Shown in pieces: positions 1 through 49,192 of a stretch of DNA of 55,299 nt. The stretch's first letter is position 1. The number at the start of each line of letters is the position of its first letter. The position numbers and the translations under genes are program-made. The DNA comes from an uncultured Roseovarius sp. (GTDB lineage: Bacteria > Pseudomonadota > Alphaproteobacteria > Rhodobacterales > Rhodobacteraceae), in NCBI GenBank assembly GCA_937884705.1, contig CAKZYL010000458.1, positions 1 through 55,299 of the forward strand, in the 5' to 3' direction. Under the pieces are notes generated by a model, which was not told where the DNA came from, searched no databases, and saw nothing but the letters and a program-made list of their open reading frames with translations.

Positions 1-49
1 CGGCCTTCGAAGCCGAGGGTTGGGAGTTCGAACCTCTCCGAGGGTGCCA
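1..49 (+). tRNA. tRNA-Arg(TCG), 3' portion; the 5' portion presumably lies upstream of the window
   Basis: Anticodon loop CTTCGAA, TTCGAAC T loop, encoded CCA. The right-end copy has no tRNA 5' half before it, so the intact gene is probably this one. Confidence 0.8.
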
Positions 50-2155: not shown

Positions 2156-2961
2156 CACTCTTTCTCTTCTGGTGGAGGGGGAATCCAGAACCAGCCGCCT
2201 TGCTGTTCTATTTGGTCGTAGGTTTGGGCAGCGCACGGATCAGAAAGGCCGTATGGGTTGACTTCAATAAGCATGGGCTGATCAGTCGACCTGCCAACAT
2301 GTACGTCAAACACAAGCTCGTTCAACTCTGTCTCTGGGACGATCACTGATTGAAAAAATGCATCAATCTTCTTCCACGTTTCCGCACGCCACTCTTTGTC
2401 CAGAAATGAACTGAGCGGCCTGTCATAGAAGTACTGCGTTGCTGCCTGAAGTTGTCCTCCAGTCACGAAACAACGAACTTCTAACTCTGGCATGAAGTGC
2501 TGAACCTTCCTCAGCGCAATAAAACAAGGACGGTCCGCATTCTTGAAAACGGTTAAATCGTCCATGGTGCGATCGCTGGAGATCAGCCAGGTTAATGCCT
2601 GTCGGCCTGCGCAGGTGATCGGTTTATCGATCACGTCCTTAGGTGACCGAGAGTTGAGACGAATGAAGCGAGATTGCCAATCACAAAGAGCGTCGACTTC
2701 GCGAGCCAATGGATCAAGCTTATCAATCCGATGGCCGTCGTGTGCGCCCCACATGACATCAACCAGTGAGAGATCAAGAGGAACAAGATCTGTTTCCATG
2801 CTGGCGGTGCGCCAAGCATCTGGCCACTTGTCAATGTACGACCACGAAACTCGCTCGTATGATCTCAAGCAGTTAGCACTGATTGCTTTGGTGTCTGGTG
2901 GTTGAATCTCCGGAATGATAAACATCTCTTCTCCACCTAGCTTTAGCGGGACTGCGACCAT
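2155..2961 (-). CDS. Cdc123/D123-like (R2K clade) ATP-grasp protein; start may be 2925
   Basis: FIRLNSRSPKD, EVRCFV...ATQY and FDVHV...LIEVNPYG parallel the Cdc123 motifs. Confidence 0.7.
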   Translation of the reverse strand: MVAVPLKLGGEEMFIIPEIQPPDTKAISANCLRSYERVSWSYIDKWPDAWRTASMETDLVPLDLSLVDVMWGAHDGHRIDKLDPLAREVDALCDWQSRFIRLNSRSPKDVIDKPITCAGRQALTWLISSDRTMDDLTVFKNADRPCFIALRKVQHFMPELEVRCFVTGGQLQAATQYFYDRPLSSFLDKEWRAETWKKIDAFFQSVIVPETELNELVFDVHVGRSTDQPMLIEVNPYGLSDPCAAQTYDQIEQQGGWFWIPPPPEEKE

Positions 2962-3299
2962 ACCGGGTCTCCATTAAAACGACGCCAGCCTCTAAAGCCT
3001 GACTTCTTCTGATGTTTCTTTGGAACTATGTTCTTCGTGTACTTGCGTTTGGTGGTTGCTGCCTGCTTGCGGTCCTGGGGCGTCTTGGCGCCGTGGCATA
3101 TGAAGCATAAGAGCTGAAGGTTATCGTCATCGTTCGTGCCTTGGCATTCTAATGACGTTATGTGATCAATGTGCCAGACCTCACCGGGCCTAATTCGCCT
3201 TTTGCAATTGTTGCAAACGCCATCGTGAGCGGCGAAGAAACGAGCTCTTTGTTGAGGCGTCCAAGATCGCCTCTTTTCCTTGTCGAATGGGCTTGTCAT
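2943..3299 (-). CDS. HNH endonuclease with zinc finger
   Basis: CNNC...IDHI...GTNDDDNLQLLCFICHGAKT; ATG at 3299 overlaps the upstream stop. Confidence 0.85.
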   Translation of the reverse strand: MTSPFDKEKRRSWTPQQRARFFAAHDGVCNNCKRRIRPGEVWHIDHITSLECQGTNDDDNLQLLCFICHGAKTPQDRKQAATTKRKYTKNIVPKKHQKKSGFRGWRRFNGDPVWSQSR

Positions 3300-3793
3300 T
3301 TGTGTCTCGCAAAATCGCCATGAAACTGTTTTGCGGCGTGCTGGCGTGCCTTTGTGGCATCTTCGATAGAATCGAATAGACCAAGGTGCTGCATACGACC
3401 GTCTACTGTTATGAATGCACGCCATTTTCTCATCTGTTTGTGCCATGACACGCCCTTAACGCCCGACGTATTGTCGGATCGAATAGCTACGTTCATAAGG
3501 TTCTGAGAATGAGTTGCTGGGCGTAGATTTGACCATCTGTTGTCGGACGGGTCTGAGTTGATGTGATCAATCGAATGGTCAGGCCATATTCCAGTCATGT
3601 AAAACCAAGCTAGCCGATGAGCGTAATAGGCCTGCCTGAGTATATTAATTCGCACATATCCATTATTATTAGCGCAACCTGCAACAGCGCCATGTGAAAC
3701 ACCGGCACGGGCAGATCTCCATGTGAATTGCCCGGTTGTTGGATCGTATCGAACCTGTTGCTTCAGTCTTTCCAATGTCAACATTTTCGCCAT
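3296..3793 (-). CDS. HNH homing endonuclease with AP2-like C-terminus
   Basis: AHRLAWFY...IDHINSDPSDNRWSNLR...NTSGVKGVSW...HLGLF. Confidence 0.9.
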   Translation of the reverse strand: MAKMLTLERLKQQVRYDPTTGQFTWRSARAGVSHGAVAGCANNNGYVRINILRQAYYAHRLAWFYMTGIWPDHSIDHINSDPSDNRWSNLRPATHSQNLMNVAIRSDNTSGVKGVSWHKQMRKWRAFITVDGRMQHLGLFDSIEDATKARQHAAKQFHGDFARHK

Positions 3794-6832: not shown

Positions 6833-7004
6833 GACCGGGCGGGCTTTATGTTGGGATTAAAGGACCCGCCCGGTCGATTTGAGAGCGAACCACTCTCCCC
6901 CCGCTATGGAAGGGCACGCGCTCAAACTGGGTGCAGGACGGGAGGGTAGTGGTGATGTGGAGCTAGCCCGTATCGGAGAGTTTTGGGCTGATCTCCCGTC
7001 CTGC
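6833..7004 (-). ncRNA. Structured leader with three consecutive stem-loops
   Basis: Inverted repeats 6833-6843/6865-6875 (11 bp), 6878-6887/6917-6926 (one mismatch) and 6933-6944/6993-7004 (12 bp). Confidence 0.5.
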
Positions 7005-7013
7005 GATAAGAGA

Positions 7014-7066
7014 ACTATTCTGGAAAATTCGGAATACGTCAACCATGAATTCCGAAAAACTCAGAA
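7014..7066 (-). promoter_or_regulatory. Leftward early promoter with two 17-bp operators
   Basis: TTCTGGAAAATTCGGAA (7018-7034) and TTCCGAAAAACTCAGAA (7050-7066) flank a minus-strand TTGACG (7042-7037) and resemble the palindrome at 10411. Confidence 0.65.
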
Positions 7067-7122
7067 AAAGTTGTTGGCAGTCATCAGACTGTGGACAACA
7101 GTGCTATAGCTGGACCTGAAAT

Positions 7123-7959
7123 TTGAGGATGTTGCCGGTGGCGCTGGTGTTGATTGATCGATATGGACAAACTCATTCGGGTTCGAGTGAGCTACCTGGC
7201 AACGCGGAGCAAGACGGTTTTATTCGCCTGAGCCTTCCGCCGGCGCCAACCTTCCTCTCGTTCGATCCATCGCAAACTTCGTTCCGCGCGTTTGCAACGA
7301 CGGGTGCAATACTGAAGGCGGCCAATCCAGATAGGATTGCGGTTCGCATCTCGGGCGATCAGGCGGAGTACCGAATTGCTGGAAGCGCATCAGAGGCCAG
7401 CAGCATCCTGTATCAAGCTCTGAGAAGAGCTAAGCGTGTCGGCGCTTTTCAGGCCGATCGCCGGAGCGTGGAAGAGCAGGACTTGGAGCCGTCATATAGG
7501 CTGTTGCTGGGGCTTTGGCGCGATACTGGCGGGCGCATAGATGCTGAGACTCGATCGCAGCAGCTACACGAGATCATGTCTGGCAAATTTCTGTCGGTTC
7601 AGGAGCGGACGCCCGGTGACCTTCTCGAGTTCACTTCGATCGGCAAAGCATCGAATGTCTACAAAGACAAGTCTTGGCTGCTTCAATCTTCGGGCATGCT
7701 TGTCGAAAACCAGCCGGACATGAAGTATGGGCTATGGGTCCAGGAAGGCTACCGAGCTGCAATGCAGCAGCAAGAGCCACAGGTGGACGACGTTGATGCG
7801 CTTGTCTACGACCCATTCCAACAAAAGTATCGGCGCCACAAATACAGGCGGATGCTTCTCCCTATTCGTGGTCCTCACGACCAGCCAATGCTGCTAAGCG
7901 CTCCGATCCCGCGCTCTTTCGTCGAAGTCGACATTGAAGTTGCGAACAAAAGCAGCTGA
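7123..7959 (+). CDS. Hypothetical protein with PAS-like C-terminal domain
   Basis: LLGLWR...FTSIG...GYRAA...P...YRRMLLPI resembles alphaproteobacterial PAS_5-type domains; start uncertain. Confidence 0.5.
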   Translation: MRMLPVALVLIDRYGQTHSGSSELPGNAEQDGFIRLSLPPAPTFLSFDPSQTSFRAFATTGAILKAANPDRIAVRISGDQAEYRIAGSASEASSILYQALRRAKRVGAFQADRRSVEEQDLEPSYRLLLGLWRDTGGRIDAETRSQQLHEIMSGKFLSVQERTPGDLLEFTSIGKASNVYKDKSWLLQSSGMLVENQPDMKYGLWVQEGYRAAMQQQEPQVDDVDALVYDPFQQKYRRHKYRRMLLPIRGPHDQPMLLSAPIPRSFVEVDIEVANKSS

Positions 7960-8670
7960 GTCTGTAATGATTTCCTCCCTCTGCATTCGGCACAACACAT
8001 AGAGCGTGGTCGCATTCGGGTAGCTTGGCGAGTTCGTGTGGATCACGTGACGCGTTACCTCTGAATAGCCGAGACGCTTGTCGAAATCACGAACATTGTT
8101 GGCATCAGCAATGACCCCGCAGACGCTATCCACATTCCAGCGAGACAACGATAGGACGCGGCCTATTCGCGGAACGATGCGTGCCAGCTGACGCCCTCGC
8201 ATGCTCGGGTGGTACCAAACGGCTCCCAAAAACACGACACTCCCGGTGATATCCTCGGCATTGGGCGCCGTCACGACGCATGTCTCACCGGATGCTGCTT
8301 GTATGCTTGGATCGCTGTAGAAGCAGCGCAGGCTCTCTGCCTCGCGCTTGAGGTTGCTCTGGCTCCAGTCCATCAGTTTGCCAGCCTGGGTGCAGACAAC
8401 CTGGCCAGCGCGATCCCTGCCGACGACAACAAATCCAGGGCGCTCCAGCACACCGCCAGTGTCAATTCGGAAGCTTGTGTGTAAGGGGCGCCAGTTGACC
8501 ATGTTTGCGGCATTGATCGCCTGGAGTTCCTGGAAATCAGATAGTTCCAGGAATACGCCGCGCGCGGCTGCAGCCTCAGCGGCCTTGAGGAAATAAGATC
8601 GGCTTTGAGGTGTGGGAGTATGGTCAGACGCGACTTGATCAAGAAAGCGGTTCGCCGGGTTGGTCAACAT
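7894..8670 (-). CDS. GNAT/acyltransferase-fold protein (LuxI/FeeM-like architecture)
   Basis: VFLGAVWYHPSMRGRQLAR matches the acyl-CoA binding motif; late LGY motif; ATG at 8670 preceded by GAGG. Confidence 0.5.
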   Translation of the reverse strand: MLTNPANRFLDQVASDHTPTPQSRSYFLKAAEAAAARGVFLELSDFQELQAINAANMVNWRPLHTSFRIDTGGVLERPGFVVVGRDRAGQVVCTQAGKLMDWSQSNLKREAESLRCFYSDPSIQAASGETCVVTAPNAEDITGSVVFLGAVWYHPSMRGRQLARIVPRIGRVLSLSRWNVDSVCGVIADANNVRDFDKRLGYSEVTRHVIHTNSPSYPNATTLYVLCRMQREEIITDSAAFVRNFNVDFDERARDRSA

Positions 8671-8817
8671 AATTGCGATCCTCACGACAAGGTGGAGGTT
8701 TATTGAAAACTTCCACCTAGCCGTGAAAATCACGCGCGTCAGTTGCGTATGCGAGTTATGCTCATTACTCTAGTTGATAACCTGTGTATTTTAATACTTA
8801 AGTTGATTGAGGGTGCC

Positions 8818-9252
8818 ATGAACGATGATCGGGGTGTTGTTCAGAAACTAGAGCGTCGGGCGCCAACAGAAGTCGAGAAGATCATAGGGCAACGTATCAG
8901 GCTCCGGCGGCGATCTCTGAAGCTGAGCCAAGAAGCACTTGGAGAGGTTTGCGGCCTCTCCCCTCAGCAAATTCACAAATATGAGAATGGGTTCAGCCGT
9001 ATTAGCGTTGGACGCCTCATGCAGCTGGCGGAAGCCCTGGGCGCCACTGTCGAGTGGTTCTTTGAGGGCCTGGGAGAAAGGCAAGGCGATCCGGATGACG
9101 TTATGCACATGATCGCCAAGCCAGAATACACAGAGCTTATGCTGCTTTTGGAAGATCTGGACGACAACAGCTTCACCAACAGTGTTCTTGAGATGGTGAA
9201 GTATCGCGTACGCTCGTTAGAGGCCAGACCGGAAAGGGCGGCTAGTGCTTAG
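8818..9252 (+). CDS. XRE-family HTH regulator
   Basis: IGQRIRLRR...LSQEALGEVCGLSPQQIHKYENGFSRISVGRL...WFFEG; GAGG upstream of ATG at 8818. Confidence 0.88.
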   Translation: MNDDRGVVQKLERRAPTEVEKIIGQRIRLRRRSLKLSQEALGEVCGLSPQQIHKYENGFSRISVGRLMQLAEALGATVEWFFEGLGERQGDPDDVMHMIAKPEYTELMLLLEDLDDNSFTNSVLEMVKYRVRSLEARPERAASA

Positions 9253-9712
9253 GATTTTGGGCGCTGCAACGCTAGGTCTCGTTGGGATTTCTGGAAGCGC
9301 CACCGCGTCGTGGGTTGAGATCACGAGCTGCAGTAGCCTAAGCGGAATGGCATACTATTTACCTGGCCCCTTGGTTCCTGCAGACAAGGCCGGATGGCAG
9401 GAGGATGCAATCTCCAAGGGAAGCACCACATTGCTTTCTGACGGCAAAAACTTTGACATTGTTTTCAAAGACGCTGCCGGGCGGCAAAGGTCGGTGCGTT
9501 TCCACGAGAAGGCGATAGTGAAGTCACGGATTAACACCCATCTAACCGTCATGGTTACGTATCCGAAAGGTAACCAGAGGAGTGGTGTAAGTTCAGAGCA
9601 ATATACCTTTCGGCTATCCCGTAAAGGAGATGGCATCATGATTCTGAGCCAGCAGCGGGATGCACTTATCTCAAAGGTCTCCGTAATGGCAGGTGCTTGT
9701 AAAGCAAAGTAA
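9245..9712 (+). CDS. Secreted/periplasmic protein
   Basis: N-terminal signal peptide ending ATA; two Cys near the termini. Confidence 0.6.
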   Translation: MLRILGAATLGLVGISGSATASWVEITSCSSLSGMAYYLPGPLVPADKAGWQEDAISKGSTTLLSDGKNFDIVFKDAAGRQRSVRFHEKAIVKSRINTHLTVMVTYPKGNQRSGVSSEQYTFRLSRKGDGIMILSQQRDALISKVSVMAGACKAK

Positions 9713-9733
9713 TAAGCAACCCGATGCCCGCAA

Positions 9734-10354
9734 TTACAGCTCTTTAAAGACTCCGACGGCTCTAGCGAGGATGTGGTTGGGATGCTCCTCGTTCGCTGTC
9801 ATTTCCGGATAATCCGTATTGTCAAAACGGAGTATGAAACTCTCTCGGCTGTTCGGCTTTAGTGGCCGATACCTGCCGATGTATGCGGTTTCTTCATCTG
9901 GTGACGAAACGAGTATGAGTTTTCCGGGTTGCAGGTCTGCGCCTACATCGAAGACCACAACATGGCCCTCACCGATCTCAGGAACGTTCGCAGTATCTTC
10001 ACTCGTTACGCCGAAGCACCGCTCTGGGTGTTTTACTGGCACAACTATTGTTTTCTCTACTACAACATCAGTGAGGATCTTTTTACCATCCGTGAAGGCA
10101 CTTACACCATGGATGCTAAGTAGAGGAATCGAGTGAACCTCCACTGTGGGGACAGGTATGTCACCAAAACGGAGATATTTCTCTGTCACTCCGACAGCGC
10201 CAGACAGCCGCTCGAGGACTGTTCCTCGCGGATTCTGAGTTTCACCTTTCAGGTAGCCATAGATCGACTTCGCCGGAACTTTAGAGAGCTTAGCTAGCTC
10301 CTCAACGTCCAAGCCTTCGCGTTCCATGGCTTTTGCAAGCCGCTCCCACCACAT
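9734..10354 (-). CDS. cI: CI-like repressor (HTH plus degenerate S24 domain)
   Basis: XRE HTH, IPLL linker, S24-like C-terminus; divergent from cro; ATG at 10354. Confidence 0.85.
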   Translation of the reverse strand: MWWERLAKAMEREGLDVEELAKLSKVPAKSIYGYLKGETQNPRGTVLERLSGAVGVTEKYLRFGDIPVPTVEVHSIPLLSIHGVSAFTDGKKILTDVVVEKTIVVPVKHPERCFGVTSEDTANVPEIGEGHVVVFDVGADLQPGKLILVSSPDEETAYIGRYRPLKPNSRESFILRFDNTDYPEMTANEEHPNHILARAVGVFKEL

Positions 10355-10368
10355 GTGGCGCAACCTAC

Positions 10369-10427
10369 CCCTGAATTTTTCAGTGTGTTTCCAAATATTC
10401 CATCTTGTAATTCCGGATAATCCGGAA
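10369..10427. promoter_or_regulatory. cI/cro operator region
   Basis: Palindrome TTCCGGATAATCCGGAA (10411-10427) and CTGAATTTTTCAG core (10371-10383). Confidence 0.7.
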
Positions 10428-10439
10428 TAGCGTCTGGAT

Positions 10440-10700
10440 ATGCGGAAGAACCCACGAGAGATTATTGATGCATGCGGCGGTCCATCGGCCATCGCTGCAA
10501 AGTCATGCGCATTCGAGACGAGTCAGAGGGTGTCAGCCAAGGCCGTCTACGACTGGCAAGACAACGGCATACCAGAGAAGCGCTGGCCCATCATCATGTC
10601 TCTCACGGATATCACTGAGGCAGAGCTTCACGCTGCCAACGAAGCAGTCCGCACCAAAAAAAAGGGATCTGAAATGCAGTCTGAAGCACACGCAGCTTGA
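10440..10700 (+). CDS. cro: Cro-like protein
   Basis: IIDACGGPSAIA...AVYDWQDNGIP...W; divergent from cI. Confidence 0.8.
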   Translation: MRKNPREIIDACGGPSAIAAKSCAFETSQRVSAKAVYDWQDNGIPEKRWPIIMSLTDITEAELHAANEAVRTKKKGSEMQSEAHAA

Positions 10701-15565: not shown

Positions 15566-16066
15566 ATGCCCGATATAACGGCGGAAAGACTTCGACAGCT
15601 TCTGAACTACAATCCTGAAACAGGTGAATTCGTCTGGGCTGTCACAAGAGGAAGTCGGGCGATGGCAGGAACGATCACAAGCTGCTGCTCATCGCACGGG
15701 TACAGAGTCATAAGAATAGACAATCAGTTGATTATGGCGCATCGCCTAGCATGGCTCTATGTCCATGGAGAATTGCCGAGCGGTGAAATTGATCACATCA
15801 ATGGCGACCGATCAGACAACCGTTTGGCTAACCTGAGATTGGCCACGCGAGTTCAGAACAATCAAAACACAAAGACCAGAACGGACAACACGTCCGGCCA
15901 CAAAGGCGTTTGCTTTCACAAGCAAGCGGGCCGTTGGATGGCCTACATCAACGCATCTGGAAAGAGAACCTATTTAGGCCTGCACAACAGCAAGGAAGAA
16001 GCGGCTCAGGCATACGCAGCCGCCGCCCAGGAACTTCACGGTGAATTCGCGAGGACAGAGCAATGA
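15566..16066 (+). CDS. HNH homing endonuclease with AP2-like C-terminus
   Basis: AHRLAWLY...IDHINGDRSDNRLANLR...NTSGHKGV. Confidence 0.9.
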   Translation: MPDITAERLRQLLNYNPETGEFVWAVTRGSRAMAGTITSCCSSHGYRVIRIDNQLIMAHRLAWLYVHGELPSGEIDHINGDRSDNRLANLRLATRVQNNQNTKTRTDNTSGHKGVCFHKQAGRWMAYINASGKRTYLGLHNSKEEAAQAYAAAAQELHGEFARTEQ

Positions 16067-28665: not shown

Positions 28666-29448
28666 TTGCCAACACAGGATTTGGTACAATCACTGTTCGA
28701 TTATGAAAGTGAGACAGGACATCTGAGGTGGTCAAAAAACCGTGTCGGTCGGGCAGAAGCGGGCTGTAGAGCCGGAACGTGTGTTAGGGGCACGCGCGTA
28801 GTATGTGTACACAAAAAACAATACACAGTTCGACAGATTGTTTGGCTCTACCACCGAGGCACCATGCCTACATCTAAGATTTATCCAATCAATGGGTGTG
28901 CGAATGATACCAGGATTGAAAATCTCACCCTGGCAAAAGATCAGCATTGGATCGACGCTGAGCGATTGCGGCATCTGCTAAGCTATGAACAAGACACTGG
29001 TCATTTTCGTTGGAAAAATGGCCGAGGGCCGCGCGCCAAGACGGGAACCATAGCTGGCCGTAACCGGTTTGGATACAATCAAATCCACGTCTGTGGTCGA
29101 CGTTATCCGGCGCACAGGCTGGCTTGGTTATATATGACTGGTGAGTGGCCGCAGAATGATATCGACCACATCAACCGTAATAGATCTGACAATCGGTGGT
29201 GCAACCTGCGAGAAGCAACGCGTTCGCAAAACAACATGAACCGAGGACCAACAAAGGCTAACAAGAGTGGTTTCAAGGGTGTTAGCTGGAGCAAATGTAA
29301 CAGCAAGTGGATTGCCCGGATTAAGGTGGGTAAAAAATATAAACACCTTGGTTGCTTTACAAGCAAAGAAGACGCAGCAAATGCGTACAATAGGGCTAGC
29401 GAAATCGTGCACGGTGATTTCGGGTACAGCAATCCGGTAGTTGGATGA
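28666..29448 (+). CDS. HNH-AP2 endonuclease with an extra degenerate N-terminal HNH copy
   Basis: First copy IYPINGCANDTRIENL lacks the DH pair; second copy IDHINRNRSDNRWCNLR is intact. Confidence 0.85.
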   Translation: MPTQDLVQSLFDYESETGHLRWSKNRVGRAEAGCRAGTCVRGTRVVCVHKKQYTVRQIVWLYHRGTMPTSKIYPINGCANDTRIENLTLAKDQHWIDAERLRHLLSYEQDTGHFRWKNGRGPRAKTGTIAGRNRFGYNQIHVCGRRYPAHRLAWLYMTGEWPQNDIDHINRNRSDNRWCNLREATRSQNNMNRGPTKANKSGFKGVSWSKCNSKWIARIKVGKKYKHLGCFTSKEDAANAYNRASEIVHGDFGYSNPVVG

Positions 29449-29810: not shown

Positions 29811-30364
29811 TGGATCCATTCACGCTTGCTGCCGTGTCAGCTGTTGCCACTGCTGGAACCACAATCCTCGGCGCACAATCTGAAGCCAACGTCCTAGAGC
29901 AACAAGCTGAGGACGAACAGCAGCGCGCAGAGATACAGGCAGCTAACGCTGAGAAACAGGCATTGGAAGAGCGTGTTGTTGGCCAGCAGAAGGCCGGCAA
30001 CCGGCGACGTGAGGCCAAGCTTGCAAAATCACGCCTCATTGCAGAAGCTGGCGCGTCAGGGGCGAGCGCGTCAGACAAGACTGTCCTTGATATCTGGGGG
30101 GATATTGACGCCGAGGGCCGGTTCAATGCCGATCAGGAAGCCGCTGCCGCTGATCAGAAGGCAAAGGGGATCACTTATCAGGCCAGCCTTGATCGATGGA
30201 CAGCAGATCGTAACGCAGCAATCAAACGGTCATCTGCCAAGACAACCAGAATCGGCGGCTTCGGCGAAGCGATTGGCCAAAGTTTTGGGATGATGAGTCG
30301 TTATGGGGGATTCAGCCCGTCATCCACGATTGACGGTTGGAAGCCAACGGTGACCTACGGCTAA
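29810..30364 (+). CDS. Small internal virion (ejection) protein
   Basis: MDP plus hydrophobic N-terminus, Ala/Gln helical body, AGASGA. Confidence 0.72.
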   Translation: MDPFTLAAVSAVATAGTTILGAQSEANVLEQQAEDEQQRAEIQAANAEKQALEERVVGQQKAGNRRREAKLAKSRLIAEAGASGASASDKTVLDIWGDIDAEGRFNADQEAAAADQKAKGITYQASLDRWTADRNAAIKRSSAKTTRIGGFGEAIGQSFGMMSRYGGFSPSSTIDGWKPTVTYG

Positions 30365-32487
30365 TGGCACGTACTCCTCAAGGTTCAGACTTGATGCGCG
30401 ACCCGAAGGCCGCGGCTACTCCAGCCGTGCGCGCAAGGGCTGTTGATTACTCTCCACAGCTGCAAGCAACTCGCTCGCTGCAGCGCGCAGGGAATTCGGT
30501 TTCCAAGGGCTTTGAGATCGCCGCGCAGAAAGCGCAGGAATACGAGGATCATGAAACCAAACTCAAACTTGCTGAGTTCCGCCTGCAAACCGAACGTGAT
30601 CTGGAAGACCATCGAAAGACTATGGCTCCAGGGGCAGCAGGCTGGGAGTCAGGATGGCAGAAGGCCTATACTAAGCGCGCAGACAAGTTCATAAAAGCGC
30701 TGCCCGCTGCTCAGAGGCAGAACGCACATGCGGCATTAACACGACAGTATGAGAGGCTTGGCAGTCGAGCGAACTCACTTGCTCGCGGTGAGGCCCGCCG
30801 GTTTACGCTGGAGCGCCTAGAAGGAACTTTGACCGGATTCACAGAGAGGGTCGATCGCGATCCATCATCTCTGAATGAAAGCCGGCAAGAAGCACGCAGA
30901 CTGGTCGAGAGTGCCGATCTCTCACTGGCTCAGAGAAAGGTCCTGCTCAAGCGAACGCGTCAGCAACTGGATCGGACAGCTCTAACTGCGAAACTTGCCT
31001 CTGCAAAAGATATCGGATCTCTCAATGCCTTGGATCAGGAGCTTGCTGGGAGCAAAGACGCCAAGCGTTACGATGGACCTTACAAATACTTAAGCGTGGC
31101 GCAGCGGCGGTCTGTACGAGGACAGATCGAAACGCAGAAAAAGAGGATTATCCGCGAGGTTCGCAAAGAGATATCAAATGTGGAAAGCGCGGCAGTAAAC
31201 GGTGTCGCACCGAAAGAAGGCGAGCGTGCGAGGATTGACCAGTTAGTGGAGTCGACTGGCGATCCTAAGCTGAAGCGAGAGCTTTCTAGTGCTTTGAAGA
31301 CGGCGGAGCGGATGAAGTCTCTATACCGACTTCCAGACACTGCAGTTGCTGCGGCTGCTACTCGACTTCGCGCTGATCTTACCAATAATGGTGGAACGGC
31401 TGCCCAGGACAAATATGTTCGGAAAATTGAAGCGCTGGCCCGAAATATGAAGACGGCCCTAAAAAACGACCGTCTTCAATGGGCTTGGAAGACCGGCACC
31501 GTCCCCATCGAGAGGTTGGTGCTTGACGATCCGAGGTCTATGGCATTGCGCTATGAGCAATCTCACCAAGCCGCTCGCATCTTTGTAGAAGGCAAGGTCA
31601 ACGATCCCGCTGATATGAACCAGCACGAGTTGGACGCTGGAGCTGCAGAGCCCCCTCCCGCAAAAGACGTCATATACTTCCTGAATGCTGAGCGTGACGT
31701 GATAGCCTCCGATCTGGAGTCTGGTCGAAGGTCTGTCACTAAGACGGCCGCACTTCTTGTGCGTGCTTGGGGGCCAAAGGCTGCACAACAGGAGATGAGC
31801 CGTCTCGTTGATAAAGCACCAGGGGCCGCGCTAATCGGCACGTATGTTACGAATTTTGGAGAAAACGCGCCACTCGCGAAGGACTATGAAGCTGGTTTGC
31901 GGCTCAAGCAAACGGAAGGCTTCAAGTCACGACTCGGTTCGGTTGTTGAGATCCGCGGCGCGGTTGCGGACGCGGTCGATGCAAAAGCATTCGCGCTAAA
32001 TCCGCAGGGCCTTACCGCTTTGCGCAATGCTGCCAATGTTATCTATGAGCAACAAGCCACGCGAGAGGGCCTGATCGAGTTTGAGAGCAATCGTTACGAG
32101 AAGATAGTCCGAGAACTCATAGGTGAAAACAAAATTGGCGGCGTGACTTATGGTGGGATTGCGGACGGCGATCCCGGCTGGTGGGGATCCTTTCCAACTT
32201 TTGTTCCGCACGATGTGCGCCAAGATAGTTTTGATGATCTGAGGGAAGAAATAAAGATTGAAGATCTTCCGTCACATCCAAGAGAAGGTGGCCGAAACGT
32301 TACCAAAGGTGAGTTCGAGTCTGCGATTTGGGTAAGCCAAGGAATGGATCGTTATCTATTGGCAGCCGATGTAGGCGATGAAGGCCTCAAGGCTTACACG
32401 GATCATGATGGCCGACCCTACATCATCGACTTTGGATCACTGCGCGGAAGACTAAAAGAACGTCGTCGAGATCTGTTTGCCCCATAG
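30364..32487 (+). CDS. Internal virion (ejection) protein
   Basis: Long helical Ala/Arg-rich protein; TAATG coupling gives start 30364. Confidence 0.68.
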   Translation: MARTPQGSDLMRDPKAAATPAVRARAVDYSPQLQATRSLQRAGNSVSKGFEIAAQKAQEYEDHETKLKLAEFRLQTERDLEDHRKTMAPGAAGWESGWQKAYTKRADKFIKALPAAQRQNAHAALTRQYERLGSRANSLARGEARRFTLERLEGTLTGFTERVDRDPSSLNESRQEARRLVESADLSLAQRKVLLKRTRQQLDRTALTAKLASAKDIGSLNALDQELAGSKDAKRYDGPYKYLSVAQRRSVRGQIETQKKRIIREVRKEISNVESAAVNGVAPKEGERARIDQLVESTGDPKLKRELSSALKTAERMKSLYRLPDTAVAAAATRLRADLTNNGGTAAQDKYVRKIEALARNMKTALKNDRLQWAWKTGTVPIERLVLDDPRSMALRYEQSHQAARIFVEGKVNDPADMNQHELDAGAAEPPPAKDVIYFLNAERDVIASDLESGRRSVTKTAALLVRAWGPKAAQQEMSRLVDKAPGAALIGTYVTNFGENAPLAKDYEAGLRLKQTEGFKSRLGSVVEIRGAVADAVDAKAFALNPQGLTALRNAANVIYEQQATREGLIEFESNRYEKIVRELIGENKIGGVTYGGIADGDPGWWGSFPTFVPHDVRQDSFDDLREEIKIEDLPSHPREGGRNVTKGEFESAIWVSQGMDRYLLAADVGDEGLKAYTDHDGRPYIIDFGSLRGRLKERRRDLFAP

Positions 32488-32855: not shown

Positions 32856-33191
32856 TCACTTCTTCAGAGCGGATCTTTTAACAATAGATCTCTGAACACG
32901 TGTGACTTTAGAGGGTGGAGCAGGGATCTTTGGACGAGAATCAGAGTCAAATGGCGGTGGCTCACCGGCGCCACTACCAGTTCCGTAAAACACCTGTCGT
33001 CGTTTGCGAACCGCTTCAGCTAAACGCTCAGGGTCCAGGAAATCAGCCTCGTCCAACTGATCCACATGAGCCTGCAGAACAATTGCAATGTATGAAGCCA
33101 GGCTGCGGTCATCGGCTTCCGCAAGCATCTTCAGCGAGTCAAGCAGTTGATCAGGCAGCCGCACAGTAGTTTGTGAGTTTTTCTTCTCCAT
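32856..33191 (-). CDS. Arc/ribbon-helix-helix regulator
   Basis: QTTVRLPDQLLDSLKMLAEADDRSLASYIAIVL. Confidence 0.8.
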   Translation of the reverse strand: MEKKNSQTTVRLPDQLLDSLKMLAEADDRSLASYIAIVLQAHVDQLDEADFLDPERLAEAVRKRRQVFYGTGSGAGEPPPFDSDSRPKIPAPPSKVTRVQRSIVKRSALKK

Positions 33192-33195
33192 AGAG

Positions 33196-33244
33196 TGCAT
33201 TTGACTTCATATGAATTGACATGCAATCGAAACCGTGAACACAT
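33196..33244 (+). promoter_or_regulatory. Divergent promoter with palindromic operator
   Basis: TGCAT-TTGAC-TTCATATGAA-TTGAC-ATGCA (33196-33225) overlapping TTGACA at 33216-33221. Confidence 0.6.
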
Positions 33245-33546: not shown

Positions 33547-33665
33547 TACTTTCAGGAGATATTGGCAGTTTCCTCGGCAGGGCTCCGCTTCGTTCGGCGT
33601 GGCACGGCGAGGTGAGGCAGGGCACGGCTCCGCTTGGCACGGATTTCAGACTATCTCTTTCAGTA
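33547..33665 (+). ncRNA. Candidate guide RNA: (G/C)GY-NN pentamer array in a closing stem
   Basis: 13 in-register pentamers at 33576-33640; GAGATA/TATCTC (33556-33561/33652-33657) and TACT/AGTA flanks; intergenic. Confidence 0.7.
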
Positions 33666-33675
33666 GGAGCGTAAA

Positions 33676-34281
33676 ATGCAAATCATGACAGCAAAGTTCA
33701 GTGGTTCGAAGCCGCTTCTCATGTCAAATGAGCAGATGGCCAATCCGCTCAGTAAGGCGTCACAGCGATTAAAAGAAATCACGCAGAAGAGAAACAAGAC
33801 TGAGGATGATTACTGGGAATGTGCCCGAAGGGAATTTGACGGAGGCATGTACTTTGACGATGCACTCGGTCCGATCATACCTAGTCGCATTCTTCGAGCC
33901 GCTCTGATCGCTGGCGCCAAAAAACTGAAGCTAGGTCCCAAGGTCACAGAAGGTGTCACGTTTGTCGATCTGGAATACAAGCTGCTGTACACCGGTCCGC
34001 GCGATAAAGATGGCTTATGGAAGAAGGGTTTCTACGATCAACGAATGGTCGGCAATCAACGAGCCCGTGTTCTTCGCACCCGACCGATGTTCAAGGACTG
34101 GGCTGTCGAGTTCCAGATCATCTTCGACCCGACAATGATCGATGAGCGCAACATAACTGACGTCCTCAGGCGTGCTGAGACATTGGGCATCGGTGACTAC
34201 CGGCCCTTGTTCGGCACGTATCAATCGAAGGTTCTCGGCGTTGCTCAATGGCAAATCGATCTACCGGAGGCCGCAGAGTGA
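33676..34281 (+). CDS. Stand-alone RAMP/Cas7-like protein
   Basis: N-terminal strand plus PLLM, PIIPSRILRAAL, RTRP-x-F-x2-W, C-terminal Gly-rich loop LGIGDYRPLFGTY; AGGAG RBS. Confidence 0.68.
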   Translation: MQIMTAKFSGSKPLLMSNEQMANPLSKASQRLKEITQKRNKTEDDYWECARREFDGGMYFDDALGPIIPSRILRAALIAGAKKLKLGPKVTEGVTFVDLEYKLLYTGPRDKDGLWKKGFYDQRMVGNQRARVLRTRPMFKDWAVEFQIIFDPTMIDERNITDVLRRAETLGIGDYRPLFGTYQSKVLGVAQWQIDLPEAAE

Positions 34282-34763
34282 AAGAGCCGCGCAATTTCTT
34301 CTCGCACGATCCAAACATCGGCGAGCCCTGGCAAATAGCGGTTCAGGGCTTAGTAGAGATGGATCTTACGCCCGGAGACATCGTCCAACAACGTGAGATC
34401 ACGGCACTTCTTGGCATGATCGACGAGGATGAAATCACGGACGCCGCAGAGTTCAAGCGCTTCACGATGGCTCGTTGGCCACAAGTGGAAAAGCTTATTG
34501 AAGGTTTTGAAGACGAGACTGGTCTCACACTCATGGCAAATCACCGAGGCGCGTATCTGGTCATTGAGCCAGAAGAAGTCGCGCAAGTTGTCATGGAAGC
34601 AACGGGCCGGAAGCTGCACCGCCTTCTCAAGTGGGCCACTGGAAAGTTGAATCGAGCCAGCAACGAACGTGCATCAGCAGAAGAACTGCAACGTCGTTCT
34701 GATGCAGTTGTCCATCTTCAATCGCTCCGGCAACAGGCTAAGCGAGCAAGGGCAAAAGGTTAG
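34278..34763 (+). CDS. Partner protein coupled to the RAMP-like gene
   Basis: GTGA start/stop overlap; possible winged-helix region followed by basic helices. Confidence 0.65.
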   Translation: MKEPRNFFSHDPNIGEPWQIAVQGLVEMDLTPGDIVQQREITALLGMIDEDEITDAAEFKRFTMARWPQVEKLIEGFEDETGLTLMANHRGAYLVIEPEEVAQVVMEATGRKLHRLLKWATGKLNRASNERASAEELQRRSDAVVHLQSLRQQAKRARAKG

Positions 34764-35208: not shown

Positions 35209-38200
35209 ATGTACTTCGGCAAACCTGACATGAACCGGGTCTATACGACACCGGCTGACGTTACGACTCCACCTGCTGATCCGTCGTGGGCGAACCTTGG
35301 CGATATAGCGGCAAGGACGTCTGAAACCATGTACATAACCAATAATCTCAACAGTACGGAGCTTGGCCTAGAGGAAGCATACAGGCAAGAAATTGCGACA
35401 ATCAAGGACGCGACTGGAACCGAGCTCCCAAACCCACAAACGTTTCGCAGGCAGGCCGGCTTACAGGGTCAAGAAGGCGCATATGGTCAATTGTTCTCCA
35501 AACGCCTGCGCCAGAAAAGCGAAGAGGAGGTCACTCCGCAACGCTTTATGGAATTGAAGCGCGAGTTGGCGGAGAAATATCCACAGCATCTCGAGGCCAT
35601 TAAACCGGACGCTGATCCCGGTGATACGCTTCGCCAGCTGCGCCGCGATGCTGAGAAACGTTTGCTGGAAGCGCACCGGCGCTATGGCGATGGTTTCTTG
35701 CCCTACGCTGCTATGTTAGCTGGTGGTGTCTATGGTGGCGGTACTGACCCAGCTTTCTGGGCCTCGTTTCTGCCTGGAATGCAGGGCGGCGCGGGCCGTG
35801 GGATTGCAGGCTTGTTATCGATGGCAGCGAAACAGGCTGCGATCAATGCGGCTGTTGAGGTGCCATTCACCGCAGTATCTCAACTCAACCGTGCAGACGC
35901 AGGTCTGGAGTACGGAGTTAGACAGGCAGCCTTCGAAGTAGCCGCGGCTGCCGCATTCGGCGGACTTCTGGACCTCGGCGTCCGCGGTCCTACTCGTGCT
36001 ATCCAACATGTAAGAGGCAAAAAGCCAAACGTCGACGACAAAGACCGGATAGTCGGATGGCGCAACAAAGACGATCCTGAGCCCAAGCCCATCCGTATTT
36101 CACCAGAGACCTGGCAAAAGGCAGAGCAGGGCGATATCGAGTCCCTCAAGAGCGTCACCAGGGAACTCGGGATTGACGACCAACCCAGCATTCGCGGCCT
36201 GACCGAGGGAGCAGAGATCGAGGCAGAGACCCGATTGCAGCTTCGGGAGATGGGCGTCGACGATGGCGAGGGCCTACGGAAGTTCGCCCAGGCATTGCGG
36301 TCTGTTGCAGATGGGTCAGAACCGCCGCCGCTACCGCCATCTGTCACGCGAAATGAATTCCAGAATCTGAATGAACGTCTCGACGAACTATCCACCGGCC
36401 AAACAGAAGTTGCCGCAGCTGTCCGTGAGATCCGAGATGACTTGCCGGCTGAAACTGCACCGATCGAAGACTGGCGCGCAATTCAAGCAAGGATCCGTGA
36501 TCCCGAAGTCAAACAGGCCGTATCAGACTTCGTAGAAGCAAAGCAGCAGTCCGTTGATACACCAGAAGTATCGGTCACTCGTGATACGACGCCAGTGCAG
36601 CTAGCACGCGAGATTCAGGAGGTGCCATCGCGAGCGGTCGTCCTGGAACAACGCATCGGACCGGATCGTGCACGCATGGTCAATAATCTCGCACGATTGT
36701 CCGATGAAGCATTGGGCCAAGTTGAGGCCGGTGCCGTCCATCCGAAGGTTGCCGCTGTCGTCGGTGAGTTTGTTGTAGACCAATCTCGACATAAGCCAAT
36801 CGTTGAGCGGTTGAGCGCAGAGCAAGTTCAGGATGTTCCGGCTGCTCGGCGCGTCATCGGCGAGGAACTGCAGCAGGGCACGCAAGTCGAAACGGCTATT
36901 CGCATTCTCGGTGCTGACCCACGTCATACAAATGTTGAAGCACTCGGACGTCTGGACGATCCAAACGGTCCTGAGGCTCGAGCCCAGGCAGAAGAGCTAG
37001 AGCAGCAGGTCAATCGGTTCCCGAAGGATGATTTGAATCTTCTTCTGGCCATCCGTGCCTACCACGGCAGCCCTCATGACTTCGATAAGTTCTCCATGGA
37101 CAAGATAGGAACTGGAGAAGGGGCGCAAGCTTATGGGCATGGGTTGTATTTTGCTGAGAATCCGAAGGTGGCGACGCAGTACAGGGATGATCTTGCGCCT
37201 GCCAGTCCGGACCCAGTCTTTTTGGATCATGCAGGCAAGGAAGTTTCTGGAGCGACAGAGACGGCGGCCTTCCTCCTTGATCGGCACAAGAACTCAAGCC
37301 GGGGTGCGCTCGATTCTGCGCTCTACGATGCCAGCGTGATGCAGAATGCGGACGCTGTTAGTGCGGAAGTCCAAAGACTTGCCAAAGGCGCGAAGCCAGA
37401 GGACAGGGTCACAAAAGGACCGCCTCGTGAAAGCCCCGGCAACATCTACGAAGTCAACATAAAAGCCAACAAGGATGACTTCTTGGATTGGGACAAGCCG
37501 CTTAGAGGTCAATCGCAGAACGCGAGTGCCGCCTTCCGAAACATGGTGGAGGACGTCGAGAGAAAGACCTTGGGGCGTGATCCTGCATTGGGTCCGGTCC
37601 CTGAACAGCTGTCACGTTTAAAGGATCGCCTGCAGCAATTCCATGGCCGTCAGAATGATACGCCGCTTGGCCAATGGGCGGCAGCAGAGAGCTTAGACAA
37701 GGCGACCTTAGATGCGATGAAGGATTCCGGAATTCCTGGCATCAAGTACCTTGACGGAAATTCTAGGGCGTCAGGCCAAGGAACCTATAACTACGTCATA
37801 TTTGACGATAACCTGATAGAGATCACAGCAAAGAATGGAGAGCCTGTTTCTGCAGACGTGCGCCGCGAAGCTATTGCCCAGACACAGAAGCAGTTTGCGC
37901 TTGCCAACGGCGTCGGATCACTTGGTGATCCGCTTGCACATGCTGCGACACCGCTTGCCAATCTCGATATGCCGTCTATTCGCACTGAGATAGACAAGAT
38001 TATCAACAGACTGCCTGAGGGATACAAGGTCCAACTTGAGAACCGCCTGACGTTCCAGGAACGAGGCGGAATCGTCGAAGCCGATGCTGTGTTCGACCCA
38101 ACGGCCAAATTAATAAAGGTTTCGCTTGCATCGAATGATCCGGCTCGGTTTGGTCGCCATGAAGAGATCCATGCCTATCGCCAGCTCGGACTGTTCAACG

Positions 38201-38649
38201 ACGATGAGTGGAACGCTCTGACGACCTACGCGCGCGACAACGATCTGCGCAAAGCCTATAAAATTGATGATCGCTACGGAGAACTCTACGGCAATAGGTA
38301 TAAGGACGATCCCGACAAGCTCGAGGAAATGCTTGTCGAAGAAACCATTGCCGAAATGTGGGCCGATCGGGTTTCTGGCAAGAGTTACGGCAAAACGATT
38401 GACGGCCTCATCGATCGAGTGATGCGGGTCATAAACGCAATCTCGAAAATGCTCCGTGGCAAAGGATACACGCGCATTGAAGACGTTTATCAGCGTATTG
38501 AAACAGGTGAGATTGGACGTCGCGCAGAACCATCAGCTTCAAGCGATTTGCCCCCGACGAACGTCGACTACCAAGCTTATCAAGCTGAGATGTCTCGAAC
38601 CCAACGAATGGGAGATGTCGGCGAAGTCGTGGAGGCCTGTCGACGATGA
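35209..38649 (+). CDS. Large polyvalent ejection protein with ART-like and zincin-like domains
   Basis: AYHGS...GTGEGAQAYGHGLYFA...GIKY...NYVIFD block; HEEIH...EETIAE. Confidence 0.7.
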   Translation: MYFGKPDMNRVYTTPADVTTPPADPSWANLGDIAARTSETMYITNNLNSTELGLEEAYRQEIATIKDATGTELPNPQTFRRQAGLQGQEGAYGQLFSKRLRQKSEEEVTPQRFMELKRELAEKYPQHLEAIKPDADPGDTLRQLRRDAEKRLLEAHRRYGDGFLPYAAMLAGGVYGGGTDPAFWASFLPGMQGGAGRGIAGLLSMAAKQAAINAAVEVPFTAVSQLNRADAGLEYGVRQAAFEVAAAAAFGGLLDLGVRGPTRAIQHVRGKKPNVDDKDRIVGWRNKDDPEPKPIRISPETWQKAEQGDIESLKSVTRELGIDDQPSIRGLTEGAEIEAETRLQLREMGVDDGEGLRKFAQALRSVADGSEPPPLPPSVTRNEFQNLNERLDELSTGQTEVAAAVREIRDDLPAETAPIEDWRAIQARIRDPEVKQAVSDFVEAKQQSVDTPEVSVTRDTTPVQLAREIQEVPSRAVVLEQRIGPDRARMVNNLARLSDEALGQVEAGAVHPKVAAVVGEFVVDQSRHKPIVERLSAEQVQDVPAARRVIGEELQQGTQVETAIRILGADPRHTNVEALGRLDDPNGPEARAQAEELEQQVNRFPKDDLNLLLAIRAYHGSPHDFDKFSMDKIGTGEGAQAYGHGLYFAENPKVATQYRDDLAPASPDPVFLDHAGKEVSGATETAAFLLDRHKNSSRGALDSALYDASVMQNADAVSAEVQRLAKGAKPEDRVTKGPPRESPGNIYEVNIKANKDDFLDWDKPLRGQSQNASAAFRNMVEDVERKTLGRDPALGPVPEQLSRLKDRLQQFHGRQNDTPLGQWAAAESLDKATLDAMKDSGIPGIKYLDGNSRASGQGTYNYVIFDDNLIEITAKNGEPVSADVRREAIAQTQKQFALANGVGSLGDPLAHAATPLANLDMPSIRTEIDKIINRLPEGYKVQLENRLTFQERGGIVEADAVFDPTAKLIKVSLASNDPARFGRHEEIHAYRQLGLFNDDEWNALTTYARDNDLRKAYKIDDRYGELYGNRYKDDPDKLEEMLVEETIAEMWADRVSGKSYGKTIDGLIDRVMRVINAISKMLRGKGYTRIEDVYQRIETGEIGRRAEPSASSDLPPTNVDYQAYQAEMSRTQRMGDVGEVVEACRR

Positions 38650-47969: not shown

Positions 47970-48701
47970 ATGAGCCTAGCATTTGAGAAACTATCAAAAC
48001 GCCGCTTGCAGGGCGTTCACCCCGACCTAACAGACGTCGTGCATAAGGCGATAGAAAGCCTTGATGTGCCGGTTTTGGTCGTTGAAGGTAAACGCACGAA
48101 AGCACGTCAACGCCAGCTAGTCAGAAAAGGTGCTAGCCAGACAATGAACAGCCGGCATCTAACCGGACATGCTGTTGACCTGGTCGCTGTTGACGGCCGC
48201 AAGCTTCTATGGGGCCGGCCTTACTATCAGTCGATATCAGCCGCAATGAAGTCAGCCGCAGAAGAGCTGAACGTTGATATTGATTGGGGTGGCGACTGGC
48301 GATCATTCAAAGACACTCCGCATTACCAGTTGAACTGGAAGGCTTACCCCAAGGATGACAAGAGCTGGCAGGATCGCGTTAAGCCAGAGGTTAAGCCCTG
48401 CCAAGTTCTGGCCAAGACTAGCCGTAAGTACAAGACGGCCGGCTTAGGAAAGCATGCTTCCGCTGGATTTGCTGCATCAGCAATTAGCTATGCCAGCCTG
48501 CAAAACGTAACCGCCACACAAAGCTATCTTGATGCGATCAGTTCCCTTCTCAAAACTTATGGGATTGTTGTTGCTATAGCTGCCGGTGTGGCTGGCTGGC
48601 TGATCTTCGAACTGCTTCAGCGTTGGCAGGAAGAAGACTATGAGGACGGCCGATACGAAACAAAAGAAGACATGAATGAAGGGTCAGGCGAATGGGGTTG
48701 A
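47970..48701 (+). CDS. Endolysin, peptidase M15 family, with hydrophobic C-terminus
   Basis: RLQGVHPDL, SRHLTGHAVD, WGGDW...DTPHYQL. Confidence 0.9.
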   Translation: MSLAFEKLSKRRLQGVHPDLTDVVHKAIESLDVPVLVVEGKRTKARQRQLVRKGASQTMNSRHLTGHAVDLVAVDGRKLLWGRPYYQSISAAMKSAAEELNVDIDWGGDWRSFKDTPHYQLNWKAYPKDDKSWQDRVKPEVKPCQVLAKTSRKYKTAGLGKHASAGFAASAISYASLQNVTATQSYLDAISSLLKTYGIVVAIAAGVAGWLIFELLQRWQEEDYEDGRYETKEDMNEGSGEWG

Positions 48702-49192
48702 CGCAAGAGCAATTGCATAAAGTCTTGCATTATGACCCTGACACTGGTGATTTTTGGTGGAAGGAGAAGAAGTCAGGGCGACACATGACAAAGCCAGCGG
48801 GCGGAAAGTCCGGGAGGTATTTACAAATACAGCTATGGAAAGGCGCGCAGTTCTACGCTCATCGCCTTGCGTGGCTGTACGTTTACGGAACGTGGCCGCC
48901 AGAATGCATAGACCATTCAAACGGTGATGGTCTTGATAACCGTGTTGCCAACCTTCGACTAGCGAGCAAGAAACAGAACGCACGAAACGCCAAAAAAGGA
49001 AAGAACAACACGTCGGGATACAAGGGCATTTGCTTTGACAAAGGGAAGCAGAAATGGATGGCCAAGACGTGCAAGGACTACAAACAGATATTTATTGGGT
49101 ACTTTGATTGCCCTAAGCAGGCGCATGAAGCGTATGTGAACAAGATAAAAGAGTTGCATGGGGAGTTTGCCAACGGTGGAGCTGGGGAATGA
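48692..49192 (+). CDS. HNH homing endonuclease with AP2-like C-terminus
   Basis: AHRLAWLY...IDHSNGDGLDNRVANLR...NTSGYKG. Confidence 0.9.
   Translation: MGLTQEQLHKVLHYDPDTGDFWWKEKKSGRHMTKPAGGKSGRYLQIQLWKGAQFYAHRLAWLYVYGTWPPECIDHSNGDGLDNRVANLRLASKKQNARNAKKGKNNTSGYKGICFDKGKQKWMAKTCKDYKQIFIGYFDCPKQAHEAYVNKIKELHGEFANGGAGE

Follow-up and report, generated by a model that had tools for sequence, protein, structure and literature searches.

The vipr cassette and its guide array

The stretch of DNA analysed here (the window) is a contig of 55,299 nt in assembly G000, filed under an uncultured Roseovarius sp. Its plus strand carries a compact cassette made of a repeat tract predicted to encode a guide RNA (vrRNA; 33576..33640), a short 3′ tail with a ribosome-binding site (AGGAG; 33641..33675), the vipr gene for a RAMP/Cas7-like protein of 201 aa (33676..34281) and a 161-aa vap1 homolog with a GTG start (34278..34763; PHROG 5926).

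The tract, as re-read from the sequence, consists of 13 pentamers of the type (G/C)GY-NN, 10 of them GGY and three CGY, exactly as given in the initial annotation; as was also stated there, it ends 35 nt before the ATG of the 201-aa ORF. The variable dinucleotides form the predicted guide AG TC TT TC GT AC GA GA AG AC TC TT AC. No other run of at least seven [GC]G[CT]NN units exists in the 4.2-Mb assembly G000 (518 contigs), where the next-longest are three runs of six units each. Weak periodic matches in contigs C45, C90 and C313 of this assembly were rejected as ordinary sequence by eye, with no adjacent Vipr. The motifs GAGATA (33556-33561) and TATCTC (33652-33657), earlier described as bracketing the array, are both present; as a closing stem they gained no folding support, since the relevant folds were no better than those of shuffled sequences (z 0.31-0.35). 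Neither a stable fold nor a SUSP1-like pseudoknot was seen in the 35-nt tail (fold z +1.0), and no match to a sigma-70 promoter or a plus-strand terminator was found. A gap of at most 36 nt between array and vipr start also occurs in nine of the 48 other loci having an upstream array. The hexamer TTTCAG is present at one place ahead of the array and at two places behind it (33547-33562, 33644-33672), and in locus L073 an array is followed by a similar tail, TTTTCAGGAGATA.

The Vipr protein and its family

The only PDB sequence match of the 201-aa protein is 36pp, ‘SUSP1 Vipr protein’ (phmmer E 6.2e-27), which a profile of 28 sequences matches at E 1.6e-56. Both proteins fall in PHROG 4652 and share about 30% identity. 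The AlphaFold model (pLDDT 94.6) has a RAMP fold with thumb and G-loop, the latter reading GIGDYRP, and its Foldseek matches are Csm3/Cas7 subunits (identity 9–14%, TM-score ∼0.5), in agreement with the RAMP assignment made earlier from the sequence. The residue table shows K33, R39, K82, G87 and R136 (SUSP1 R138) to be retained, and D174-Y175-R176 corresponds to SUSP1 D177-W178-R179. All four residues that 10.64898/2026.04.26.720927 gives as needed for silencing in SUSP1 (K33, K82, R138 and D177) are thus kept.

The family comprises 2266 cluster representatives at E ≤0.001. Among the best 80 of 458 confirmed viral homolog loci, 77 have same-strand GGY-NN arrays with differing NN; opposite-strand tracts were seen in one of 81 loci, and all 16 dinucleotides occur over the 238 unique arrays. 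In a quick tree the window Vipr falls in a separate, supported clade of eight rows, with SUSP1 on a long branch. No close relatives were found in metagenome contigs, and Vipr is absent from the 100 relatives of G000 that were searched and from genomes G500–G502; three of the 401 genomes of G502's family have it, as distant matches (L136, L137, L138). The cassette is kept in close relatives (P0002/P0030; X1).

The 161-aa protein falls with SUSP1 Vap1 in PHROG 5926 (E 4e-12), and a phmmer comparison of the two in a 77-sequence set gave ∼1e-10. Its start codon overlaps the vipr stop codon (GTGA), and from this overlap the two genes are likely to be translationally coupled. The homolog P0030 begins at the same start, where (34278) related contigs have an ATG codon. 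The RAMP gene, earlier called stand-alone, therefore has an overlapping partner. From homology to SUSP1 Vipr, the shared Vap1 PHROG and the arrays at homolog loci, the locus is a new member of VIPR as described in preprints of 2026; the initial annotation, which had noted a resemblance to these systems, was right on this point.

Neighbouring genes and search for cas genes

Divergently from the cassette runs a gene for an Arc-like ribbon-helix-helix protein (32856..33200, minus strand), which matches Pfam Arc (PF03869) above cut-off and the PHROG of Arc-like repressors. The protein is a possible regulator. An Arc-like gene does not regularly adjoin vipr: in the set made up of the 80 viral loci and SUSP1, two further loci have one. 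No cas genes were found in the window in searches with PHROGs on 60 ORFs, Pfam on 15 and PADLOC on 34, which upholds what had been noted from the ORF list; PADLOC gave just two weak HNH/ZorE matches, both on one HNH gene.

The segment 32490-35208, with the cassette, several small ORFs and the divergent Arc-like gene, is inserted between two internal-virion genes, and a related prophage in genome G502 (see below) carries different small ORFs at the corresponding spot. Downstream (35209-38649) lies the gene for a 1146-aa internal virion protein, in which residues 616-673 match, at the Pfam cut-off, a domain resembling the ADP-ribosyltransferase ART-PolyVal. The genome also has five scattered genes for HNH endonucleases, four belonging to PHROG 99 (HNH-AP2 type), with coordinates that include 2943-3793, 15566-16066, 28666-29448 and 48692-49192.

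The phage and its probable host

The contig is circular, with a terminal overlap of 55 nt, and encodes an integrase (122-1189), repressors, DnaB, terminases, head, tail, internal virion and lysis proteins; by this gene content it is a temperate podovirus. Its attP core is the 3′ part of tRNA-Arg(TCG) (1..49, plus strand). The 49-base core has exact matches in two Hyphomicrobiaceae genomes, which belong to the family set of G502, and in G502 it is present as attL and attR. G502 carries a mosaic sister prophage with 82–100% identity to the window over many blocks, among them the attL/attR, integrase, tail and lysis regions. The repressor (immunity) region 6861-10700 equals G502:C681:1-3840 at 100% over 3840 bp. 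The two phages are, as far as their sequences tell, likely homoimmune and mosaic relatives.

Assembly G000 is 84% complete, has no Arg-TCG gene among its 31 tRNAs and shares no BLASTN match between the window and its remaining contigs. Given the att match in Hyphomicrobiaceae and the lack in G000 of both an Arg-TCG tRNA and shared DNA, the contig was probably mis-binned and its host is probably Hyphomicrobiaceae-like.

Predicted target of the guide

Under the 1-nt-skip target rule (10.64898/2026.04.26.720920), the guide decodes to V[KN][DE]VLSSVT[DE][KN][DE]L, with the skips on wobble positions. The first lead came from the G502 prophage, whose minus strand has a site of 20/26 inside its allele of a gene that in the window (30364..32487, plus strand) encodes 707 aa. 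At the G502 site every skip falls on a third codon position and the protein reads LKDVLSSLKKEDL. Of 3000 guides with shuffled units, three scored 20 in the 8.8 kb of G502 loci. The SUSP1 DNA also gave an unrelated 20/26, and the G502 match was consequently taken as a lead only; at 77% this sole DNA-level match is below the 80% used in 10.64898/2026.04.26.720920.

Three proteins were found in a search for homologs of the G502 protein, among them P0032, an 877-aa protein with a phage-lysozyme insert, which at codons 772-784 reads VKDVLSSVTKEDL. At three of the 13 site codons it departs from the G502 protein, and each of these differences brings it closer to the guide. Of the 13 codon families 11 fit, and the nine 3′ units (5–13) do so without exception; in SUSP1, according to 10.64898/2026.04.26.720927, the Vipr filament assembles from the 3′ end. 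Units 3 and 4 misfit, as both P0032 and the G502 protein have KE where EK is decoded. The units GGCTC CGCTT are present twice in the array, as units 2-3 and 11-12 (33576-33590, 33616-33635), and the misfit of unit 3 might derive from copying of 3′ units, a hint on guide rewriting.

Depending on the Leu and Ser codons, the protein-level score of P0032 has a floor of 18/26 and a ceiling of 24/26; its controls use the ceiling, i.e. the maximum score possible from a protein sequence. On this scale the best of 1.66 million residues in G000 ORFs scored 20, as did the best of 5000 shuffled guides. For 187 unrelated vrRNAs the best fraction was 0.73, versus 0.92 for the window guide on P0032.

The window itself has no self-target, its best site being 19/26. 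In its own assembly nothing rose above background at skips of 0–3 (best 1-nt-skip site 20/26, with shuffled guides reaching 19–21). An exact 26-base site was found in none of the viral, metagenome and genome collections, and sites with at most three mismatches in none of the 401 G000-family genomes, the three att-bearing genomes or the 301 G502-family genomes. Three sub-patterns picked out 34 viral-contig loci (best 22/26, L098); none is related to P0032 (best tblastn E 0.28), and for this reason they were treated as chance. The viral contigs yielded no DNA of P0032-type genes. In G502's family a P0032-type homolog occurs in nine of 401 genomes, and the eight besides G502 are distant, with best guide scores of 14–17. 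The proposal that the NN string spells a gapped target was supported, since with the 1-nt skip the string decodes to a wobble-aligned site in a related phage's gene.

A second guide comes from a contig of sequencing run X1, which has a related vipr and six different NN units in the same 5-nt register. These six readable units decode to [KN][HQ][HQ][DE]RL and equal NQHERL at residues 127-132 of P0032, 12/12 at the protein level. The background for such a match is one site per orientation in 1.66 million residues, and 13 of 5000 shuffles gave it; on the window's own DNA at the NQHERL site the X1 units score 8/12. As decoded at the protein level, two natural guides are thus directed at different sites within a single rival gene.

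The window has its own allele of this gene 1.1 kb upstream of the array, flanked by a T7 gp14-like gene on one side and virion genes of PHROGs 342/684 on the other. From this position between internal-virion genes, its 707-aa product is a probable internal virion or ejection protein; neither this protein nor P0031 has a Pfam or PHROG match. In an alignment with P0031 and P0032, the homologous site of the window (32230-32268) agrees with 12/26 guide bases. Over the first 235 columns the own protein shares 98% identity with that of G502, but only 29% in the C-terminal part. Between P0032 and the window allele, identity is ∼55% N-terminally and 29% C-terminally, and the C-terminal part of P0032 has the G502 protein as closest relative (65%). 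The G502 allele stands in full prophage context and follows a T7-gp14-like gene. The ejection-protein gene is modular, and P0032 adds its lysozyme domain at the junction of the N- and C-terminal parts.

Loss of His17 and deviant repeats

In SUSP1, His17 of Vipr contacts and reads G1 of the repeat, according to the SUSP1 preprints. The window Vipr has Ser at this position, where His is kept in 93 of 102 and in 136 of 150 homologs, and all three repeat deviations in the window array are changes of G1 to C. Where loci have arrays, deviation at G1 affects 4.8% of the 2781 units belonging to 67 His loci, compared with 26% of the 188 units belonging to five Ser/Ala loci. Four of these five are one clade that is equally loose at G2; G1 deviation is not raised in the one Asn locus, and it reaches 23% in one His locus and 18% in SUSP1 itself. 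At least three G1 deviations occur in six of 157 His arrays. By reading of the X1 vipr, the listed substitutions and indels would restore the His codon. Loci L048, L049, L051, L053 and L054 form a Ser/Ala17 Vipr clade with strongly degenerate arrays, in which G1 and G2 each deviate in about one-quarter to one-third of units. We regard the association of His17Ser with G1-deviant repeats as a lead from two independent lineages, and no more.

Comparison with known systems

VIPR tracts are described as 9–16 YNNGG (GGY/NN) repeats beside vipr (10.64898/2026.04.26.720920); the window tract, with 13 units, is within this range. The type II system of the Escherichia phage SUSP1 (10.64898/2026.04.26.720920, 10.64898/2026.04.26.720927; PDB 36pp) resembles the window in its Vipr homolog, the vap1 gene directly downstream, the GGY-NN tract upstream of vipr, a wobble-aligned predicted target and the lack of a self-match. 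It differs in having four vrRNAs, where the window has one, and in the pseudoknot tail of its clade, where the window has a 35-nt tail without pseudoknot. SUSP1 has His17, whereas the window combines Ser17 with three CGY units. The window cassette sits on a temperate podovirus with a probable Hyphomicrobiaceae host, and its predicted target is the virion ejection gene of a related phage rather than a satellite recombinase. With type II VIPR as a whole (SUSP1 and Pseudomonas fulva) the window shares vap1; the multi-vrRNA array and the structured 3′ tail are missing.

The P. fulva prophage clade (10.64898/2026.04.26.720920) is similar in that vipr and vap1 are prophage-borne and the guides are predicted to act against other prophages. 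The targets reported there, however, are mainly lysis-lysogeny regulators and other VIPRs, and the window guide is predicted to act on a homolog of the gene next to the cassette, which is a late structural gene. Solo vrRNAs of the SUSP1 family, as presented in 10.64898/2026.10.15.759431, are likewise guides aimed at close relatives, with a self-match lower than the non-self match; they target vipr, vrRNAs or satellites and come without vipr, whereas the window has a complete cassette predicted to act on an essential-looking virion gene. The words ‘virion’ and ‘ejection’ are absent from 10.64898/2026.04.26.720920 and its supplementary PDF (PMC13142463), though the lists in data S3/S4 may include such targets or the clade. 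An ejection gene of a related phage was not found as a target class in that text or in the accessible parts of 10.64898/2026.04.26.720927, 10.64898/2026.10.15.759431 and 10.64898/2026.10.21.760802.

Cas7/Csm3 of class 1 CRISPR shares with the window Vipr the RAMP fold, thumb and G-loop. Class 1 systems have a repeat-spacer array, a cas operon and contiguous pairing; the window has a pentamer code, and no cas genes were found. The place of the cassette has parallels in other phages. In T4, cassettes of freestanding homing endonucleases adjoin the gene whose rival allele they discriminate against, and in the immI region of P22 an Arc-like gene is inserted among ejection-protein genes. The likeness appears to be positional only; no nuclease is involved here, and RNA-guided repression is predicted.

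Proposed function and alternative explanations

We consider it quite probable, from sequence comparison, that this VIPR of a temperate podovirus has a guide that silences the virion-ejection allele of a related phage and spares its own, given that the guide decodes to a 13-codon stretch of the related phage's version. As described in the SUSP1 preprints, one Vipr subunit binds per pentamer, with GGY hidden, in a filament along the RNA; NN pairs with double-stranded DNA, every third base being skipped, and transcription is repressed. Vap1 enhances silencing or is needed for it in SUSP1 and P. fulva, according to the preprints. In the window phage the RNA would anneal to codons 772-784 of the P0032-type gene on the coding strand, and each skip would fall on the wobble base of a target codon, so that the rival could not escape by synonymous changes. 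Once bound, the filament would obstruct the late operon of the rival, with a likely polar effect on downstream virion and lysis genes too, and a co-infecting or co-induced relative would consequently make few infectious particles. The own allele would escape because its C-terminal two-thirds have diverged (29% amino-acid identity; 12/26).

The P0032 element could instead be a satellite that borrows the capsid of the window podovirus and has its own lysozyme-bearing ejection protein, the cassette being a genuine VIPR with an anti-satellite role as in SUSP1. Structural genes of the helper have diverged homologs in the SUSP1 satellites (10.64898/2026.10.15.759431), the contig of P0032 is only 13.5 kb, and the identity to the window allele (∼55% N-terminal, 29% C-terminal) would suit such an origin. 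The nearest relative of its C-terminal part (65%) is, however, in the full prophage context of G502, and we think this origin unlikely. It is improbable that the guide of a genuine VIPR has another target or is stale, with the P0032 match due to chance or history. The absence of a DNA-level match reaching 80%, the mismatches of units 3–4 in both homologs and the choice of the lead gene after a 20/26 match among about 90 loci would fit this; yet P0032 was found by homology and not by the guide, its ceiling of 24 compares with null maxima of 20, and the X1 allele decodes independently to the same protein.

A decaying, inactive cassette is suggested by the loss of a His17 kept in most homologs (93/102 and 136/150), the three CGY units, the single guide and the unstructured tail, and GGY-to-AGY is among the perturbations said to abolish SUSP1 silencing (10.64898/2026.04.26.720920, text and fig. 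S12 legend). Both ORFs are nevertheless intact and overlapping, K33, K82, R138 and D177 are kept, the cassette persists in P0002/P0030 and X1, and short tails occur in other loci; we judge decay to be very improbable. That an orphan CRISPR Cas7 or an anti-CRISPR-like gene lies by chance beside a GC-rich repeat, as the Foldseek matches to CRISPR Csm3/Cas7 subunits would allow, is hardly credible: these matches have 9–14% identity and TM ∼0.5, as against E 6e-27 for SUSP1 Vipr, and the array is unique in 4.2 Mb and accompanies the gene family.

Returning to silencing of a related phage's gene, a more specific and still tentative proposal is that the cassette serves as an RNA-guided module for allele exclusion. 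It would lie beside the gene whose rival allele it silences, together with a resistant allele with a swapped C-terminal part, and different isolates would re-aim their guides within the rival gene. We hold this to be possible, with the odds against it.

Since the VIPR family is already published, membership alone is modest news. What the locus adds is the prediction of a natural target for a system from beyond E. coli and Pseudomonas, with controls and a second allele in support, and it would extend the wobble-aligned 1-nt-skip code to a distant Vipr clade; the His17Ser lead is relevant to possible drift of the repeat code. At ∼1.2 kb, with a single guide and a short tail, the cassette is also a compact candidate for engineering. 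If allele exclusion is true, the His17-to-Ser change would relax the reading of the first G and permit CGY units, and VIPR would serve to discriminate between kin in podoviruses with a common att site and shared mosaic modules, which repressor immunity fails to distinguish.
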